Notes: generated by a model from the sequence alone, not told the origin. 64,000 bases of DNA from Candidatus Parcubacteria bacterium (GCA_018669975.1 JABHSK010000005.1:57123-121122), one strand, 5' to 3'. Shown: positions 47,957-61,939, counted from the first letter of the stretch. Made by a program: numbers and translations.

Positions 47957-48764
47957 ATTTATAATCTTGATTATTTTAGCCGTGCTAGTATTTCTAATGT
48001 TTTCTCTGAGTTCAAAAGAGGAGCAGCTGGAAGTGCATTTTTTAGATGTTGGGCAGGGTGATGCTATTTTGATTCGCACTCCACAGGGACAAAATATTTT
48101 GATAGATGCTGGTCCTGACAATCTTGTTTTATCGGAGTTAGCCAAAGTGTTGCCCTGGTGGGATAGAAAGATAGACTATGTCATCATCAGTCATTATCAT
48201 GCGGATCACTACATTGGTTTGGTGGATATACTAAATAAATATCAAGTTGGTCATATTTTAACTACTGCTCATCAGCCAGATGATTGGTTTTACGATTTTT
48301 ATCAGGGTGAATTATTTAGGCATCAACTTACAGAAACCATAGTCGAGGCAGGGGAGAAATTTATATTGGCGGATGATTTATATTGGCAGGTGTTGTTAGC
48401 AGATAGTCATCACGAAGATTTTAATGATAATTCACTGGTTACGCGATTTACCTATGGGCAAGTTGATTTTTTATTTATGGGGGATTTGCCAGCTTCCGGA
48501 GAAGAACATATTTTACAACAGAATCTTATTTTAGAGTCTGAGTTTTTGAAAATAGGTCATCACGGTAGTAAATATTCATCTAGTCAGGGATTTTTGCAGA
48601 CTGTAAATCCTAAAGTATGCATTATTCAGTCTGGTTTAGATAATAAATTTGGTCATCCACATGCTGAAGCCATTCAAAGGATGGGGCAAGTTGGTTGTCA
48701 GATTAGAGATACACAAAATCAAGGAACAATTAGTCTATTTAGTGATGGAAAAATTATATATTGA
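47949..48764 (+). CDS. metallo-beta-lactamase-fold domain protein corresponding to the ComEC C-terminal domain (split gene, 8-nt overlap)
   Basis: HFLDVGQGDAILIRTPQGQNILIDAG, HYHADH, GHHGS. Confidence 0.8.
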   Translation: MNKFIILIILAVLVFLMFSLSSKEEQLEVHFLDVGQGDAILIRTPQGQNILIDAGPDNLVLSELAKVLPWWDRKIDYVIISHYHADHYIGLVDILNKYQVGHILTTAHQPDDWFYDFYQGELFRHQLTETIVEAGEKFILADDLYWQVLLADSHHEDFNDNSLVTRFTYGQVDFLFMGDLPASGEEHILQQNLILESEFLKIGHHGSKYSSSQGFLQTVNPKVCIIQSGLDNKFGHPHAEAIQRMGQVGCQIRDTQNQGTISLFSDGKIIY

Positions 48765-48789
48765 CCACTAAAAATAAGGATGATATAAT
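48761..48789 (+). promoter_or_regulatory. near-consensus sigma70 promoter TTGACC-17-TATAAT
   Basis: TTGACC at 48761-48766, 17-nt spacer, TATAAT at 48784-48789; overlaps the comEC-C stop codon. Confidence 0.55.
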
Positions 48790-48796
48790 TAAAAAT

Positions 48797-49660
48797 GTAG
48801 TGTATTTGTACATTTCTTAAGTATATTTCATGCCCTCGGGCATGATCTGAAGGGCGACTCACAAATCTCAACGAAAGGAGTATTTTCCGTTCTCCGTCAT
48901 TTGTGTCAACCATTCTCACGTGGATTTGGGTCTTATGACCCTGGAGGCAACTCTATGATTGTCATCACCACCACCTCGACCACCACCGGCCAGAACAGGA
49001 ATTCCGGCATCTGAAGTCAAGTGTGACACATTGGGGTACTAAACCCAACCGATATCGTGGTTGGGATAGTCCTACCAATCTTTTTCAGAGGAGAACGTCT
49101 ATGGATGCGCTAGCTTAGCTTCCTAGATCCTGGAAGCATCGCCGTCATCGTACGTACTTCACTTGTCACTTCGACACCTCCAACATGCATCAACTGTGAT
49201 TTTCTCAGAGCAGATAGACAAGCAAGTCGATCTCTGATCGACAAGGAGGACAAATTTTATGCTTGTCCAAAGCATGATCACGATCAACGCTATCAGCGAC
49301 TCCCAAAACGCGAACAACAATCACGCGCCGGAGCATTTGCTGCGCACCCAGGAAGACCAGAGCCCGTAGGTCAAGAAGAATACCTACTCAGCGCTCGCGA
49401 TTCGCAAGATCGTTCCAAAGAGAAAGGATTCCCGACTGTGTTCTGCAGATGTAAAATGCATGAGCACGCTTTTGACTAGCTCAACTTTGATTTGACGCAA
49501 TACTCTAGTCTACCCTTCATCCGTTTAAACGGATTACACCGGACTTTCCAATTAGGAGACAGTGTTTCCCAGCTCGCCGTGGGAACTTCTCAAATTAACT
49601 CATTAAGAGTGTCCGGACCGTCGTGTTAGCTTGCCTAGCGCGACGGTTTTTCTTTCCTTG
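48797..49660 (+). ncRNA. candidate large structured ncRNA(s): about 860-nt ORF-free island of about 50% GC between a consensus promoter and an intrinsic terminator; identity unresolved
   Basis: No ORF over 70 aa on either strand; GC far above neighbours; a GGAAAGUCCGG P4-like motif with a preceding hairpin lies on the minus strand (+49538-49548); palindrome CCGTTTAAACGG. Confidence 0.4.
49617..49656 (+). terminator. intrinsic terminator closing GC-rich island 1
   Basis: accgtcg...cgacggt stem followed by TTTTTCTTT. Confidence 0.6.
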
Positions 49661-49716
49661 ATTTTTGCTTTATTTTGACTTATAATAAAGGCATTAAATT
49701 ATTAAGTTGAAAGAAT

Positions 49717-50181: not shown

Positions 50182-50760
50182 ATGGATTTCAAAAAAGAAA
50201 AGACTTATGTCATGATCAAGCCGGATGGCGTCAAGAAAGGATTGATTGGAGAAATCATTAGACGTTTTGAACAACGTGATCTTAAAGTGGTAGCTATAGA
50301 AATGTTTATGCCAACTACAAAAGATATAGACGATCATTATCCAAAGGATGAGGCCTGGATTGGGCGTTTAGGTGAAAAAACCTTAGGAACTTATGCAAAG
50401 TATGGTGTTGATGCTAATAAAGAATTGGGCACTGACAGCGCTCTAGAAATTGGCAAGATGGTTAGAGGTTGGTTGATAGATTATATGACTTCAGCTCCAT
50501 TGGTTCGCATGGTGGTAGAAGGTATTCACGCTGTAGATATGGTTAGGAAGATTTGTGGTGTTACGCTACCAAATTTAGCAGATATGGGAACTATCCGTGG
50601 TGATTATTCAGCTGACTCTCCAGCAGTAGCTAATTCTGAGAAGAGAGCAGTAATGAATTTAGTGCATGCTTCAGAAACTCCAGAGGAGGCCGAACATGAG
50701 ATTAAACACTGGTTTGGTGACCGAGATGTAATATTTGACTATAAAAGATTTGTTGATTAA
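50182..50760 (+). CDS. ndk: nucleoside diphosphate kinase (long form with insertions)
   Basis: TYVMIKPDGV, catalytic His region NLVHASET, YMTSAPLVRMVVEG. Confidence 0.8.
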   Translation: MDFKKEKTYVMIKPDGVKKGLIGEIIRRFEQRDLKVVAIEMFMPTTKDIDDHYPKDEAWIGRLGEKTLGTYAKYGVDANKELGTDSALEIGKMVRGWLIDYMTSAPLVRMVVEGIHAVDMVRKICGVTLPNLADMGTIRGDYSADSPAVANSEKRAVMNLVHASETPEEAEHEIKHWFGDRDVIFDYKRFVD

Positions 50761-50764
50761 ATTA

Positions 50765-50792
50765 AAGGGGCTAGTATTAGCCCCTTTTTTTA
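50765..50792 (+). terminator. intrinsic terminator after ndk
   Basis: aggggctagtattagcccct plus T8. Confidence 0.8.
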
Positions 50793-51155
50793 ATGAATTT
50801 GGAAATATTTTTACAGAGTGCTATACTAATAGTGTAGCTCTTTTCTTTTGAATAATATAAAACTCTACAACAATATAGTAAAGGGAACTTTATATTGACT
50901 GGGGCTGTGGCCTTATGTTTGCGAGTACCCACCTGTTCTATCAGGGGTTTACTATCTTCAAAAGCAGAGCTACGAGTCGTCAATTAGTAAAAGATAAACT
51001 ATGTACGAAGATGACTTGCAAAAAGGCGTTTTATCTGTATAATAACGATAGAAACGTCTTTTTGTTTTTCCCGTGAAACATGGGAATTGTATTTTTAGAT
51101 AAAATTCGTACCTTAAAACTAAGGATAAAAATTTCCAAAATCAAGGAGGCTTACT

Positions 51156-54425: not shown

Positions 54426-54453
54426 TTGACAAATTTTTTATTTATGCTATAAT
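54426..54453 (+). promoter_or_regulatory. consensus sigma70 promoter TTGACA-16-TATAAT
   Basis: TTGACA at 54426-54431, TATAAT at 54448-54453. Confidence 0.6.
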
Positions 54454-54459
54454 GCGTAA

Positions 54460-55485
54460 TCAGTCTAAAGTTAGACAACCGAACATTTTTCAATCAAACA
54501 GACCCAAGTCGCGATAAACAACGAAGGAGTTGTTAATAGAATGCGGAGCGGAGCCGCTTAACTCCGTGCGTAGTCACCCTGGAACGGCCATCAAACGGCC
54601 ACATCTTTTAAGAATCAGGGAGGGATCAATGATCTATACGCATCCACCGTAGCTATGGCTTATTTTCACTAAAGCCTCACAACGTCCGATGAGGCGGTTT
54701 AAACCTCCGATAATTTTTATCAGCTTAAAAGCTGATAAATAACAACAAGTAATAACATCGGTTTAAACCTAGGACAGCCGTTTAGCCCTTAGAACATCTT
54801 GCGCCCACCGGTACTAAGTACCTGTTGGCCCAATTAGGGCTCGACACAACCACCCGGCCATCCTGCTGCCTAGCATGGAGGAGTCACCCGATGACGAACA
54901 TTCGGCTGATGCACATGCTGCCCTTACCATTCTATTAACCCTTAACTGATTTCTCCTTCGGCGCGGCTGCCAATTTCAACACTCCGGATTCATCGACGAG
55001 CGGAATCGCCGCAACGAGCGCACTCATTTTCTACGTGCTCATACGGCGCTTTCCGGCGACGGCACACATTGCCGCCTTGCCGGACCACCTTCCGCCACCA
55101 TTTCCGGAGACGCGACGTCTTGACACCCGAGAAGAGCTGGTGAAGCTGACCAGCACTTTGCTCGGCGTACCCGTGCCCTCATTACTTACCGCCAATCAGG
55201 CGGCATTTAATAGGGAGGCACTTGCCTCAAGACGTCCGACGGCAGCCGCGCCGTCTTTCTTACCAAAAACAAGACAGACAATCGACGAGGGTCAGTGCGA
55301 CCGACAAACAGTAGACCGGACTGAATTCGCCATACATCCCATTCCGATGGGATACGGAAAGCCTAGTGCTCTACCGGCGAGCGAACTTCCTGCTCCAGCT
55401 ATTGGACATCCGCTTTACTCGTTTCTCGAGTTGTGCGCCCGGGGGGTACCTACCACTTTTGTGGAAAGGGCCCTCTTTTTTTATG
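54460..55485 (+). ncRNA. candidate large structured ncRNA: about 1-kb GC-rich (50-58%) island without a credible ORF, between a consensus promoter and a terminator-like GGGCCC hairpin plus T8; identity unresolved
   Basis: Only ORF is 55035..55490 (GTG start, no SD, Pro/Ala/Arg-rich, looks spurious); self-complementary GGTTTAAACC x2; perfect hairpin tttatcagctt-aa-aagctgataaa. Confidence 0.4.
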
Positions 55486-55587
55486 TATAAACAGTCAAAT
55501 ACTTGACTTTAATATTTCTTTATGCTATTTTATCTACGACTTTAAAGCAGCTTTTTGCTTTAAATTATTTAATTTTATTGTTTAAAT

Positions 55588-56514: not shown

Positions 56515-57201
56515 ATGTCGAAAGCCTTTTCATTTGATAATATAGAAAATCAACCCGGGCAATTAGCCCAGGAAGTTTTAAGAAATAACATAGACTCTGC
56601 TTTAGACGATTACTCTGTGCTTTTAAAAAGACGTGTTGAAGGCCAGGTAGATGAGAAGCTAGAACAACAAATACAAGAACAACGTCAAAACCTAATCCAG
56701 CTTTCACAACAGCTTGATAGCCAGTTGGAGCTGGATGATGTATTTTTTGAGAGGGTAAGCGAGTTATTGGAAGTAGCAGATAAAGGAATAGAAATTGGTA
56801 GAAAAGAACTTCAAGATAGATCAGATGGCAAGAGTAATATTGAAGCAATCATTTCTGATATGAGGGAATACGCTAATCAGCTTGCTAGAATTGACGCACA
56901 ACTATTAAATGTAGATACAGATTCTACCGAATCAGAAGAGATCATTTTGGAACTCAAGACCATGATACGAGCAATGACTAGTATGGCAGGAGAAATACAA
57001 AGAGTGATTTTATCTCTAGAAAGAGAAGATAAGGCAGATTTGATTCGAAGACAAGTAAAGATAATGAATGATTTGGTGAGTGCGATTAAGCACTTTGATG
57101 AATTAGATAAAGATATAAATAAATTAAAGAAAATAAGAGAACATTTTTATAAACATTTTGATGAAGCAATATTCTTTTATGAAGAATTAAAAGATTTATA
57201 A
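56515..57201 (+). CDS. hypothetical acidic coiled-coil protein inserted between rpsG and fusA
   Basis: 228 aa, Glu/Asp/Gln-rich, heptad-like helical sequence; no known family; sits inside the otherwise conserved str operon. Confidence 0.5.
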   Translation: MSKAFSFDNIENQPGQLAQEVLRNNIDSALDDYSVLLKRRVEGQVDEKLEQQIQEQRQNLIQLSQQLDSQLELDDVFFERVSELLEVADKGIEIGRKELQDRSDGKSNIEAIISDMREYANQLARIDAQLLNVDTDSTESEEIILELKTMIRAMTSMAGEIQRVILSLEREDKADLIRRQVKIMNDLVSAIKHFDELDKDINKLKKIREHFYKHFDEAIFFYEELKDL

Positions 57202-60836: not shown

Positions 60837-60968
60837 TTTATTACCTCCGGCTCGGGTGATTGTTTGTGGGTTGTGAAGGTTCGATTGATAAATTTTTAAC
60901 ATAAATACATACTCTGGTCAAACCAGGAAAAATAAAATACCTACACTGCAAGTGTAGGTATCAGGTTG

Positions 60969-61136
60969 TTAGTCTTTTTTTGTTTCATTGGCGATAGTCT
61001 CATGTTCGCCGTCCAGTTTACGAATTTTCGTCTCAATGTCCATGACTAGACAATCCCAGAGTGAGATACCAAATGGGTCTGCCTGCAGAGCAGTGATAGT
61101 TTCGGGTTCAAGCCCGCCACGTACGATTTGGCACAT
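60969..61136 (-). CDS. small hypothetical protein (55 aa), not in the ORF track
   Basis: ATG preceded by AAGGGAGA at about 6-nt spacing; sequence MCQIVRGGLEPETITALQADPFGISLWDCLVMDIETKIRKLDGEHETIANETKKD. Confidence 0.3.
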   Translation of the reverse strand: MCQIVRGGLEPETITALQADPFGISLWDCLVMDIETKIRKLDGEHETIANETKKD

Positions 61137-61349
61137 CGATGTCTCCCTTCTATCCGTGAAGGAATTTAAAAGAACGTAATATTAAAAATAATAAAATTAT
61201 CTTAAACTGTCAAATAAAAAAAAGATCTCGATTCAAGGGAACCGAGTCTTTCTCGAGGGGTAGCGTTTACCCCTTTTAAACTCACTATTACTAGCGAGCT
61301 TAAAAGGGGCCCCGACAAGAAGTCAGGGCAGGGAACAGGTGGCGTGTTA

Positions 61350-61451
61350 TTAGGGCAGTTTGATGCCCATCGCCTGTTGTTCCCCTGAGGGAATTTCGAG
61401 CAATCCCATTGTGATTGCCAGTCCTTCTATGAGAGCTTTGATCAATTTCAT
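61350..61451 (-). CDS. small hydrophobic peptide (33 aa) with a perfect SD and a structured leader
   Basis: AAGGAGGTGATC-ATG; MKLIKALIEGLAITMGLLEIPSGEQQAMGIKLP; followed on the minus strand by hairpins (agggg-taaacgcta-cccct; ctcga...tcgag) and T8. Confidence 0.3.
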   Translation of the reverse strand: MKLIKALIEGLAITMGLLEIPSGEQQAMGIKLP

Positions 61452-61454
61452 GAT

Positions 61455-61560
61455 CACCTCCTTTTGGGGTTGAAGAAATTTTCCCTCCTGAATGCACCAA
61501 CTAGTGATACTCTCAGGAGGGAGCCAGTCTGAGACTGGCTTGAAAAAATTGTATGTAGAG
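61455..61560 (-). promoter_or_regulatory. structured 5' leader of the 33-aa peptide gene containing an anti-SD element
   Basis: On the minus strand: perfect hairpin gccagtc-tca-gactggc, then ctccctcctga...tcaggaggga (10-bp stem) immediately upstream of the true SD AAGGAGG; the CCCUCCU segment could alternatively sequester the SD. Confidence 0.35.
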
Positions 61561-61894
61561 AATTTGGGTGCAGAAGGTGGAGTTGAACCACATCCATTTG
61601 GACCGGTAGGTCATTGATTTGACGGGAACACCCATCCCTTAAACCGGCAACTGCCCAACATAAGTTGCTCTACAAAGAGCGGAACTGGAGGTGAGATTGC
61701 CCAACTTTGGACCTAAGCCCGTTGAAACCAGGTTACTAGGTTGAAATTATTGAGCCGGAGCCCTATAAAATCAGCTAATATAATCTGTTCTCGCCCCTCC
61801 AAATCTACTCTTTGCAAAAACTTTATTTTTCTAAGTTCTTTATTGTAATAGAGCATTATAGCATATATTTCATATCTTGTCAAGGGTATAAAAG

Positions 61895-61937
61895 GGTTAA
61901 AAAAAAGACCGTCGAGCGATGAACTCGACGGTGTAAT
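61895..61937 (-). terminator. intrinsic terminator for the SPFH-like gene
   Basis: On the minus strand: accgtcgag-ttcatcg-ctcgacggt plus T8. Confidence 0.8.
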
Positions 61938-61939
61938 AA

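Follow-up and report, generated by a model that had tools for sequence, protein, structure and literature searches.

Genomic context and transcription unit

The 64,000-nucleotide stretch of Candidatus Parcubacteria bacterium DNA analysed here (GCA_018669975.1, JABHSK010000005.1:57123-121122), referred to below as the window, carries a kilobase-size candidate gene for a structured noncoding RNA. This element, termed the island, occupies the gap between an M50 protease gene and rpsL, i.e. the ribosomal-protein S12 operon. The local gene order was L28 (opposite strand), M50 protease, island, rpsL, rpsG, the gene of a 228-aa unknown protein, and fusA. The island was delimited as a transcription unit by the following features.

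54426 to 54453, plus strand: promoter TTGACA, 16-nt spacer with a TG extended -10, TATAAT; 12/12 consensus match
54460 to 55482, plus strand: structured RNA, putative transcript of ~1,020 nt, delimited by promoter and terminator
55441 to 55482, plus strand: intrinsic terminator, a 14-pair GC-rich stem followed by U7 (stem GGGGGGTACCTACCAC-TTTT-GTGGAAAGGGCCCTC at 55441-55475, T7 at 55476-55482)

An earlier reading of the window, made from the sequence only, had described a textbook promoter followed by about 1,020 nt of GC-rich DNA in a genome of about 34% GC, ending in a GGGCCC-centred hairpin with a T8 run. The promoter was borne out in full, with the TG extension as an additional element. 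The GC-rich stretch was likewise found, at 52% GC, in a background of 37% rather than 34%. The terminator exists as well, with GGGCCC placed in its 3' arm and not in the hairpin centre, and with seven T residues rather than eight.

A promoter scan of 53.5-56.5 kb returned the element at 54426-54453 on the plus strand as the only perfect sigma-70-type promoter. Its 28 nt were the same in the four lineages that carry the island (A, the lineage of the window, and B, C and D, described below) bar one spacer base, and the DNA just upstream was variable. The terminator retained its stem and T-run in lineages B and C, with changed loops and one compensatory pair. These signals, present in the window and conserved in sister lineages, predict a discrete RNA, for which we infer a transcription start at about position 54460.

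The composition of the island is unusual for the window. Positions 54501-55500 (GC 0.52, GC skew -0.13) formed the sole stretch of such length above 50% GC, and downstream of the promoter the GC content rose from 0.25-0.30 to 0.41-0.605 (200-nt windows, maximum 0.605). Base frequencies in the putative transcript were A.255, C.293, G.224 and U.229, those of the window as a whole G.217 and C.154 (GC.37); thus, the island is enriched in C and not in G+C.

Coding capacity and comparison with known RNA families

The longest ORF (open reading frame) of the island could encode 151 aa from a GTG start (55035-55490). This ORF had no relative besides itself among 5.8 billion proteins and no match in Pfam, and its frame was not retained in the sister lineages; the longest ORFs of A, B and C differ in frame, strand and extent. 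Six-frame translation of the island revealed nothing protein-like, and the indels between lineages (1, 2, 4, 5, 8, 13, 26 nt, etc.) are not multiples of three. The unconserved frames, the lack of protein similarity and the non-triplet indels speak against a protein-coding gene or pseudogene. The sequence-only reading had likewise seen no credible ORF and had raised the case of homologs carrying an intact protein-coding frame; no homolog was found to have an intact long ORF.

The search against known RNA families used Rfam 15, comprising 4,227 models, which include OLE, GOLLD, ROOL, HEARO, raiA, RNase P, tmRNA, SRP and 6S, and also cover group I/II introns (Intron_gpI, Intron_gpII, group-II-D1D4), riboswitches and ribosomal-protein leaders. 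No match was obtained across the whole window at the gathering threshold. At E<=10, only five chance-level matches of 13-20 bits (eukaryotic snoRNA, miRNA and similar) were obtained on the two strands of the island, and the islands of lineages B, C and D gave only noise. ARAGORN predicted no tRNA or tmRNA genes in the window. The suggestion of a large structured RNA outside the known classes is therefore upheld by the Rfam result.

The possibility of mobile DNA was also evaluated. The island had no DNA match among phages and plasmids, three exact/gapped patterns derived no match from viral contigs, and neither a second copy in the window nor terminal or tandem repeats within the island could be found. 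A mobile element (insertion sequence, miniature inverted-repeat transposable element, group II intron, or phage/plasmid fragment) was rejected on the lack of an extra copy, terminal repeats and mobile-DNA matches. Diversity-generating retroelement, tandem-array and TIGR-like repeats were looked for and none were found.

Occurrence and conservation of the island

Comparison of the M50-rpsL gap among related genomes and metagenome contigs revealed homologous islands in three sister lineages; the sequence-only reading had named a lack of conservation in related genomes as a ground for refutation. The content of the gap in each lineage was as follows.

Lineage A (window): gap of 1,210 nt, containing the island
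Lineage B: M50 89% identical, gap of 1,174 nt, homologous island, full length in L085/L086
Lineage C: M50 84% identical, homologous island, its 5' part in L074 and its 3' part in L093
Lineage D: M50 84%, 5' ~300 nt of the island in L076/L083/L084, with an extra 214-aa ORF before the island
Lineage E (P0014): M50 70%, gap of 1,226 nt, three unrelated promoter-terminator units
P0007 lineage: M50 69% identical to the window, gap of 62 nt
L001: M50 68% identical to the window, gap of 93 nt, rpsL promoter only
L002: M50 65% identical to the window, gap of 149 nt, rpsL promoter only

The islands of B, C and D are orthologous, being located at the same M50-rpsL site with 77-85% nucleotide identity. 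The flanking genes point to a Patescibacteria genome: the proteins matched by M50 bear the names Komeilibacteria or Parcubacteria, and 'Candidatus Parcubacteria bacterium' is the annotation of the 228-aa neighbour. When metagenomes were scanned with an invariant 20-mer, only lineages A, B and D came up, along with four chance matches in high-GC contigs, which were rejected by a covariance model of the 5' core. When run on the window and 42 loci (419 kb), this model (R1) found family members only; a 21-bit partial match in a Roizmanbacteria contig (L055 9893-9988, minus strand) was judged spurious. Since the scan returned only sister lineages and chance matches, and nothing similar was present in the viral, phage and plasmid collections, the family appears confined to a genus-level clade of uncultured Parcubacteria/Komeilibacteria-like Patescibacteria.

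The conservation of the island was compared with that of neighbouring coding sequences. Between A and B, the four-fold degenerate sites were 49% identical in M50 and 52% in purA; in rpsL and rpsG, which are codon-biased, the figure was 75-77%. The island was 80% identical overall between the same lineages, reaching 94% in the first 100 nt and 65-84% elsewhere. The 80% identity against approximately 50% at the four-fold sites of M50 and purA indicates that the island is under selection, with conservation well above the neutral rate. Mean column identity was 90% in the 5' conserved core (A-D) and 89% in the 3' conserved domain (A, B and C). Within lineage A, contigs carrying four synonymous rpsL single-nucleotide polymorphisms showed zero differences over the 760-1,200 nt of island that they covered.

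Contig L063 had suggested a hypervariable segment in the island; this was rejected, as L063 is a lineage-B/lineage-A chimera, its first 135 nt being 100% B and the remainder 100% A. Both L063 and the 3' end of L071 are metagenome contigs that fuse B and A sequence within the island, and such mixed contigs may be either recombinants or assembly chimeras formed at shared conserved stretches. Many low-coverage contigs stop inside the island in samples containing both A and B; the A/B chimerism seen in L063 would account for assemblies breaking there. In lineage D, the extra 214-aa ORF between M50 and the island promoter (L076 2279-2923) had no family match.

Consensus structure and covariation

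The consensus fold was obtained by using RNAalifold on the three longest sequences (A, B and C), where C joins two abutting contigs and the junction is assumed. The full-length fold consisted of 254 pairs in 35 helices, with 94.7% of cells paired. Among these pairs, 86 vary, 29 of them through compensatory changes on both sides and 26 through a single wobble-compatible change. When the partners were slid by 1-3 columns as a control, only 1-7 compensatory pairs and 36-40% paired cells were obtained, compared to 29 and 94.7%. An independent counting tool gave 13 compensatory pairs in the 5' half (shuffled mean 4.3, reached in 0/500 shuffles; slid controls 0-2) and 16 in the 3' half (shuffled mean 7.0, 0/500; slid controls 1-6). 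The folding energy of the plus strand against dinucleotide shuffles gave z = -4.4 for the 5' domain (54460-54790), -7.3 for the middle (54791-55282) and -1.5 for the 3' domain, compared to -1.1 for an M50 coding control. The predicted elements, all on the plus strand, are listed below; mini-ORF 2 is one of two small ORFs described in a later section.

54463 to 54476: 5' terminal stem-loop GUCUA-loop-UAGAC, stem invariant, loop variable
54477 to 54500: conserved A/U-rich single-stranded linker adjoining the 5' terminal stem-loop
54501 to 54511: 5' arm of the closing helix (GACCC..GUCG), pairing with 55283-55293; 9 pairs, invariant in A, B and C
54518 to 54660: 5' conserved core, a multi-helix junction including GAAUGCGGAGCGGAGCCGCU, which is invariant in four lineages
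54534-43 with 54928-37: long-range helix, near-invariant and hence predicted only
54696-706 with 54759-69: helix GGUUUAAACC/GGUUUAAACC, 11 pairs, 3 compensatory in lineage C
54785 to 54840: hairpin domain with the densest covariation (54785-93/54834-40 and 54799-815/54817-33, 7 compensatory pairs in total)
54872 to 54938: conserved module with mini-ORF 2, its 3' part pairing back to 54534-54549
54959 to 55253: 13-bp long-range helix 54959-71/55241-53, invariant and 100% complementary, hence predicted only
55112-23 with 55227-39: helix with 3 compensatory pairs
55127-35 with 55157-65, 55167-70 with 55218-21, and 55177-84 with 55208-15: further helices among the best supported
55283 to 55436: 3' arm of the closing helix and 3' conserved domain (alignment of A, B and C)
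55336-42 with 55347-53: hairpin with 2 compensatory pairs

No position varies in the closing helix 54501-11/55283-93, which is consequently predicted and not proven. The variation in length is located at helix tips. The hairpin at 54716-54739, lying inside the GGUUUAAACC helix, is 26 nt shorter in B and of different sequence in C and D, and the domain enclosed by 54959-71/55241-53, the most variable segment, measures ~270 nt in A and B and is ~250 nt longer in C. The architecture, as read from the alignment, would thus be one of conserved cores and long-range helices around variable-length tips, as in large functional RNAs. Several local details of the sequence-only reading could be located in this fold: the perfect hairpin tttatcagctt/aagctgataaa is that at 54716-54739, and the two copies of GGTTTAAACC (54696-705 and 54760-769) not only exist but pair together, and their pairing co-varies. 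The covariation that it had proposed to look for in homologs was observed as compensatory base-pair changes. A complementarity of segment 54822-36 with the rpsL start region was judged to be chance because it is not conserved in B or C.

The plus strand is favoured as the transcribed strand. It carries the conserved signals, whereas the scan of 53.5-56.5 kb found no credible promoter or terminator on the minus strand; its z-scores relative to shuffles are better as well, and it has five invariant G-U pairs, which on the minus strand would turn into C-A mismatches. The minus-strand consensus fold has a lower energy and more pairs, and consensus folding does not decide the strand.

Predicted function

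As judged from these sequence comparisons, the island constitutes a gene in its own right, whose predicted RNA of ~1,020 nt is under selection, extensively paired and devoid of a conserved long ORF. By the same evidence, the RNA is a previously undescribed family within a known kind, the large structured bacterial noncoding RNAs. By analogy with OLE, GOLLD and ROOL, it is on balance probable, with only modest confidence, that it acts as an abundant trans-acting structural, scaffold or catalytic RNA. It would be made abundantly from a duplicated copy of a ribosomal-protein promoter and released at its own terminator. The RNA would then fold into a closed multi-domain particle in which the helix 54501-11/55283-93 clamps the 5' and 3' domains, and may exert its trans function either in a ribonucleoprotein (RNP) or by self-assembly. 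It would exert no cis regulation of the str operon, and the two tiny ORFs would be by-products of the fold or be gated by it.

The island resembles OLE, GOLLD, ROOL, raiA and HEARO in being a stand-alone gene with a multi-domain fold, conserved cores and variable peripheral hairpins, without coding capacity, and in forming a GC-rich ORF-free island in an AT-rich genome. OLE is ~600 nt, GOLLD ~800 nt and ROOL ~580 nt long. The island differs from these RNAs in having no Rfam match at E<=10, in its greater length (~1,020 nt), its C-rich, G-poor composition and its mini-ORFs. Moreover, it occurs in one genus-level Patescibacteria clade, whereas OLE, GOLLD, ROOL, raiA and HEARO occur across orders or phyla, and in contrast to the ornate orphan RNAs it is not phage-associated and no conserved partner protein gene could be identified. 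The closing of the core by long-range helices and the insertions at helix tips (54716-39 and the extra ~250 nt in lineage C) recall the expansions of RNase P RNA, group I/II introns and rRNA. However, the island does not match RNase P or the introns in Rfam, interrupts no gene, and contains neither an intron-encoded protein nor a recognisable domain V or P4.

Several points weigh against this interpretation. The alignment draws on no more than three full or near-full lineages plus a partial one, all of them close relatives, and the covariation statistics are weak for that reason; the scored structure was also derived from the same alignment. The helices common to both strand predictions hold 14 G-U against 14 A-C cells, and the plus strand is C-rich and G-poor, a composition unusual for structured RNA. 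The family is missing from relatives at 65-70% M50 identity, which have gaps of 62-149 nt or unrelated units, and is therefore dispensable for the wider group. The two conserved mini-ORFs preceded by Shine-Dalgarno sequences allow a translated function.

Small ORFs and alternative explanations

The RNA has three GGAGG motifs, two of which are located 5-9 nt before an ATG, and the resulting mini-ORFs, both on the plus strand, are as follows.

54629 to 54652, plus strand: mini-ORF 1, GGGAGG, 5 nt, ATG; MI(Y/H)THPP-stop (7 codons); start, length and stop kept in A-D
54891 to 54938, plus strand: mini-ORF 2, GGAG, 7-9 nt, ATG; MT(N/T)IRLM(H/Y)MLP(L/Q)PF(Y/F)-stop (15 codons); kept in A, B and C

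These mini-ORFs were unnoticed in the sequence-only reading, to which they and the very narrow extent of the family are additions. The stop codon of mini-ORF 1 swaps between TAG and TAA among lineages, and its Shine-Dalgarno sequence and start lie in the predicted helices 54577-80/54617-20 and 54623-27/54631-35. Both mini-ORFs lie in conserved helices that bury their Shine-Dalgarno sequences and start codons. Translation of the mini-ORFs is possible, and their conservation may be explained without it.

The main rival explanation, which we consider unlikely, is built on these features. According to it, the island would encode a riboregulated micropeptide mRNA or a dual-function RNA in which the fold sequesters the ribosome-binding sites of the mini-ORFs, similar to type I toxin mRNAs (hok, aapA) or stalling leader peptides. 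The spacing of the two GGAGG motifs, the burial of both starts in conserved helices, and the retention of start, length and stop in all available lineages, with stop swaps and some synonymous changes, agree with such a function. Mini-ORF 1 ends in Pro-Pro-stop, which is a slow-termination context, and two other ORF-poor units of the window also have small ORFs behind strong Shine-Dalgarno sequences. However, of the nine variable sites of mini-ORF 2, two are at first, three at second and four at third codon positions, unlike the pattern of a coding sequence, and 4 of its 15 residues are not the same in lineages with M50 proteins of 84-89% identity. The ORF segments are conserved anyway as helix arms and amount to 72 of ~1,020 nt, with most of the conserved and covarying sequence far away. 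A third ORF with a Shine-Dalgarno sequence and ATG (MRSGAA...) varies in length.

The island has in common with hok/sok, aapA/isoA, TnaC and Erm leaders the small ORFs with buried Shine-Dalgarno sequence and start, and the long-range 5'-3' pairing, but its transcript is three to five times longer. A type I toxin-antitoxin mRNA encodes a hydrophobic membrane peptide of ~20-60 aa and has an overlapping or adjacent antisense small RNA. The peptides of the island, at 7 and 15 aa, are too short and too proline-rich for membrane toxins and lack hydrophobicity; the scan showed neither an antisense promoter nor an antisense terminator, and no regulated gene follows them in the transcript.

The position of the island directly upstream of rpsL raises the question of a regulatory leader. 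The rpsL promoter is retained 3' of the island together with its 5' untranslated region (UTR) hairpin, and both match those of island-less relatives.

55503 to 55531, plus strand: rpsL promoter TTGACT-17-TATTTT with TG; the same one stands directly after M50 in L001 and L002

The island promoter (54437-54450) and the rpsL promoter (55515-55528) have TTT(A/C)TTTATGCTAT in common, a likeness suggesting that transcription of the RNA gene may start from a duplicate of the ribosomal-protein promoter. A TGTTAT-type extended -10 is common to rpsL and the three inserted units in lineage E. From the promoter likeness in A and in lineage E, we infer that new units at this site are expressed from local copies of that promoter. 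The lineage E units (L099 3631-4856) are three tandem promoter-terminator units of ~580, 200 and 190 nt without an Rfam match.

A cis-acting leader of the str operon, in which the RNA would sense a signal and modulate terminator read-through into rpsL-rpsG-fusA, is improbable. Its immediate position upstream of rpsL on the same strand, its rpsL-type promoter and the distance of only 20 nt from the terminator to the rpsL promoter are what a ribosomal-protein operon leader would share. However, the RNA is self-terminated by a strong terminator (14 pairs and U7), after which the operon keeps its own intact, conserved promoter and 5' UTR; close relatives run the operon without such a unit, lineage E has three unrelated self-contained units at the site, and no alternative anti-terminator pairing is evident in the folds. 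As the rpsL promoter is conserved also in the island-less relatives and the lineage E units are separate, the RNA would be independent of rpsL.

A non-functional remnant, i.e. a decayed foreign gene or a selfish insertion behind a duplicated promoter, is very improbable. The foreign composition, the lineage-specific occurrence at an apparently permissive site with variable cargo, and a negative GC skew resembling that of the antisense strand of a gene would be in keeping with it, but the conservation well above neutral sites, the compensatory changes, the invariant promoter and the maintenance of the terminator in four lineages oppose it, as do the lack of protein similarity in the frames tested, of phage, plasmid or viral-contig matches, and of repeats. 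Least credible of all is a functional RNA from the minus strand, which would be G-rich like typical structured RNAs and has the lower-energy, more extensively paired consensus with shared helices that do not discriminate, but which lacks the credible signals, the better z-scores and the invariant G-U pairs of the plus strand.

Wider significance and other ORF-poor units

A broader proposal can be made, which is possible but doubtful at present. The island may be the founding member of a new kilobase-size class of ornate RNA, larger than GOLLD, serving ultra-small Patescibacteria as an RNA machine or RNP, and one of several lineage-specific large RNA genes that turn over behind duplicated ribosomal-protein-type promoters. 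The others would be located at 48.8-49.65 kb and 61.85-61.22 kb (minus strand), with three more in lineage E. If true, this would reveal an unrecognised, fast-evolving RNA layer in symbionts with otherwise streamlined genomes. To our knowledge, bacterial noncoding RNAs longer than 500 nt are very few, and the island would rank among the largest orphan bacterial RNAs. RNase P, OLE, GOLLD and ROOL each revealed unexpected biochemistry. That a fold of ~1 kb is under selection in an episymbiont genome of about megabase class, where each kilobase carries a cost, points to an important function. The site also offers a tractable case of the recent birth or acquisition of a large RNA gene, one clade having it, the next lacking it and a third carrying other cargo, and the conserved cores, variable tips and embedded mini-ORFs are direct experimental handles. 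The weight of the finding is tempered by the narrow distribution and thin alignment.

Two other ORF-poor regions of the window also contain promoter-terminator units with small ORFs behind strong Shine-Dalgarno sequences, and neither has any likeness to the island. The first (48765-49716, plus strand, GC 0.46-0.49) lies between a Lactamase_B gene and a response regulator, and has a promoter TTGACC-17(TG)-TATAAT at 48761-48789 and a 15-pair terminator at 49615-49649. Its small ORFs with Shine-Dalgarno sequence and ATG include a Thr-rich 19-mer (MIVITTTSTTTGQNRNSGI) and a 36-mer, and a lineage-B contig has a similar gap of ~950 nt at this position. Rfam searches of this region and of the lineage E units gave only noise. 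The second region (60903-61939, minus strand) consists of two promoter-terminator units. A unit of ~630 nt has a perfect promoter (61883-61855), a terminator (61246-61227) and AAGGAGGTGATC-ATG leading into a 34-codon ORF; the next unit, of ~250 nt, has a promoter (61213-61185), a terminator (60962-60936) and a 55-aa ORF.

The neighbouring 228-aa protein, encoded at 56515-57201 (plus strand) between rpsG and fusA, is acidic and all-helical. Only five clusters could be found for it among 5.8 billion proteins, it had no Pfam, PHROG, PADLOC or PDB relative, and its AlphaFold model was all-helical with low confidence (pLDDT, predicted local distance difference test, 62). L001 and L002 have no such gene between rpsG and fusA, and none was seen after rpsG in lineage E. 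A link between this clade-specific protein and the island RNA was considered and set aside, no evidence tying the two. Finally, the NDK and HAD hydrolase genes are separated by a 395-nt AT-rich gap (50761-51155), and a promoter-like site is found near 50734.

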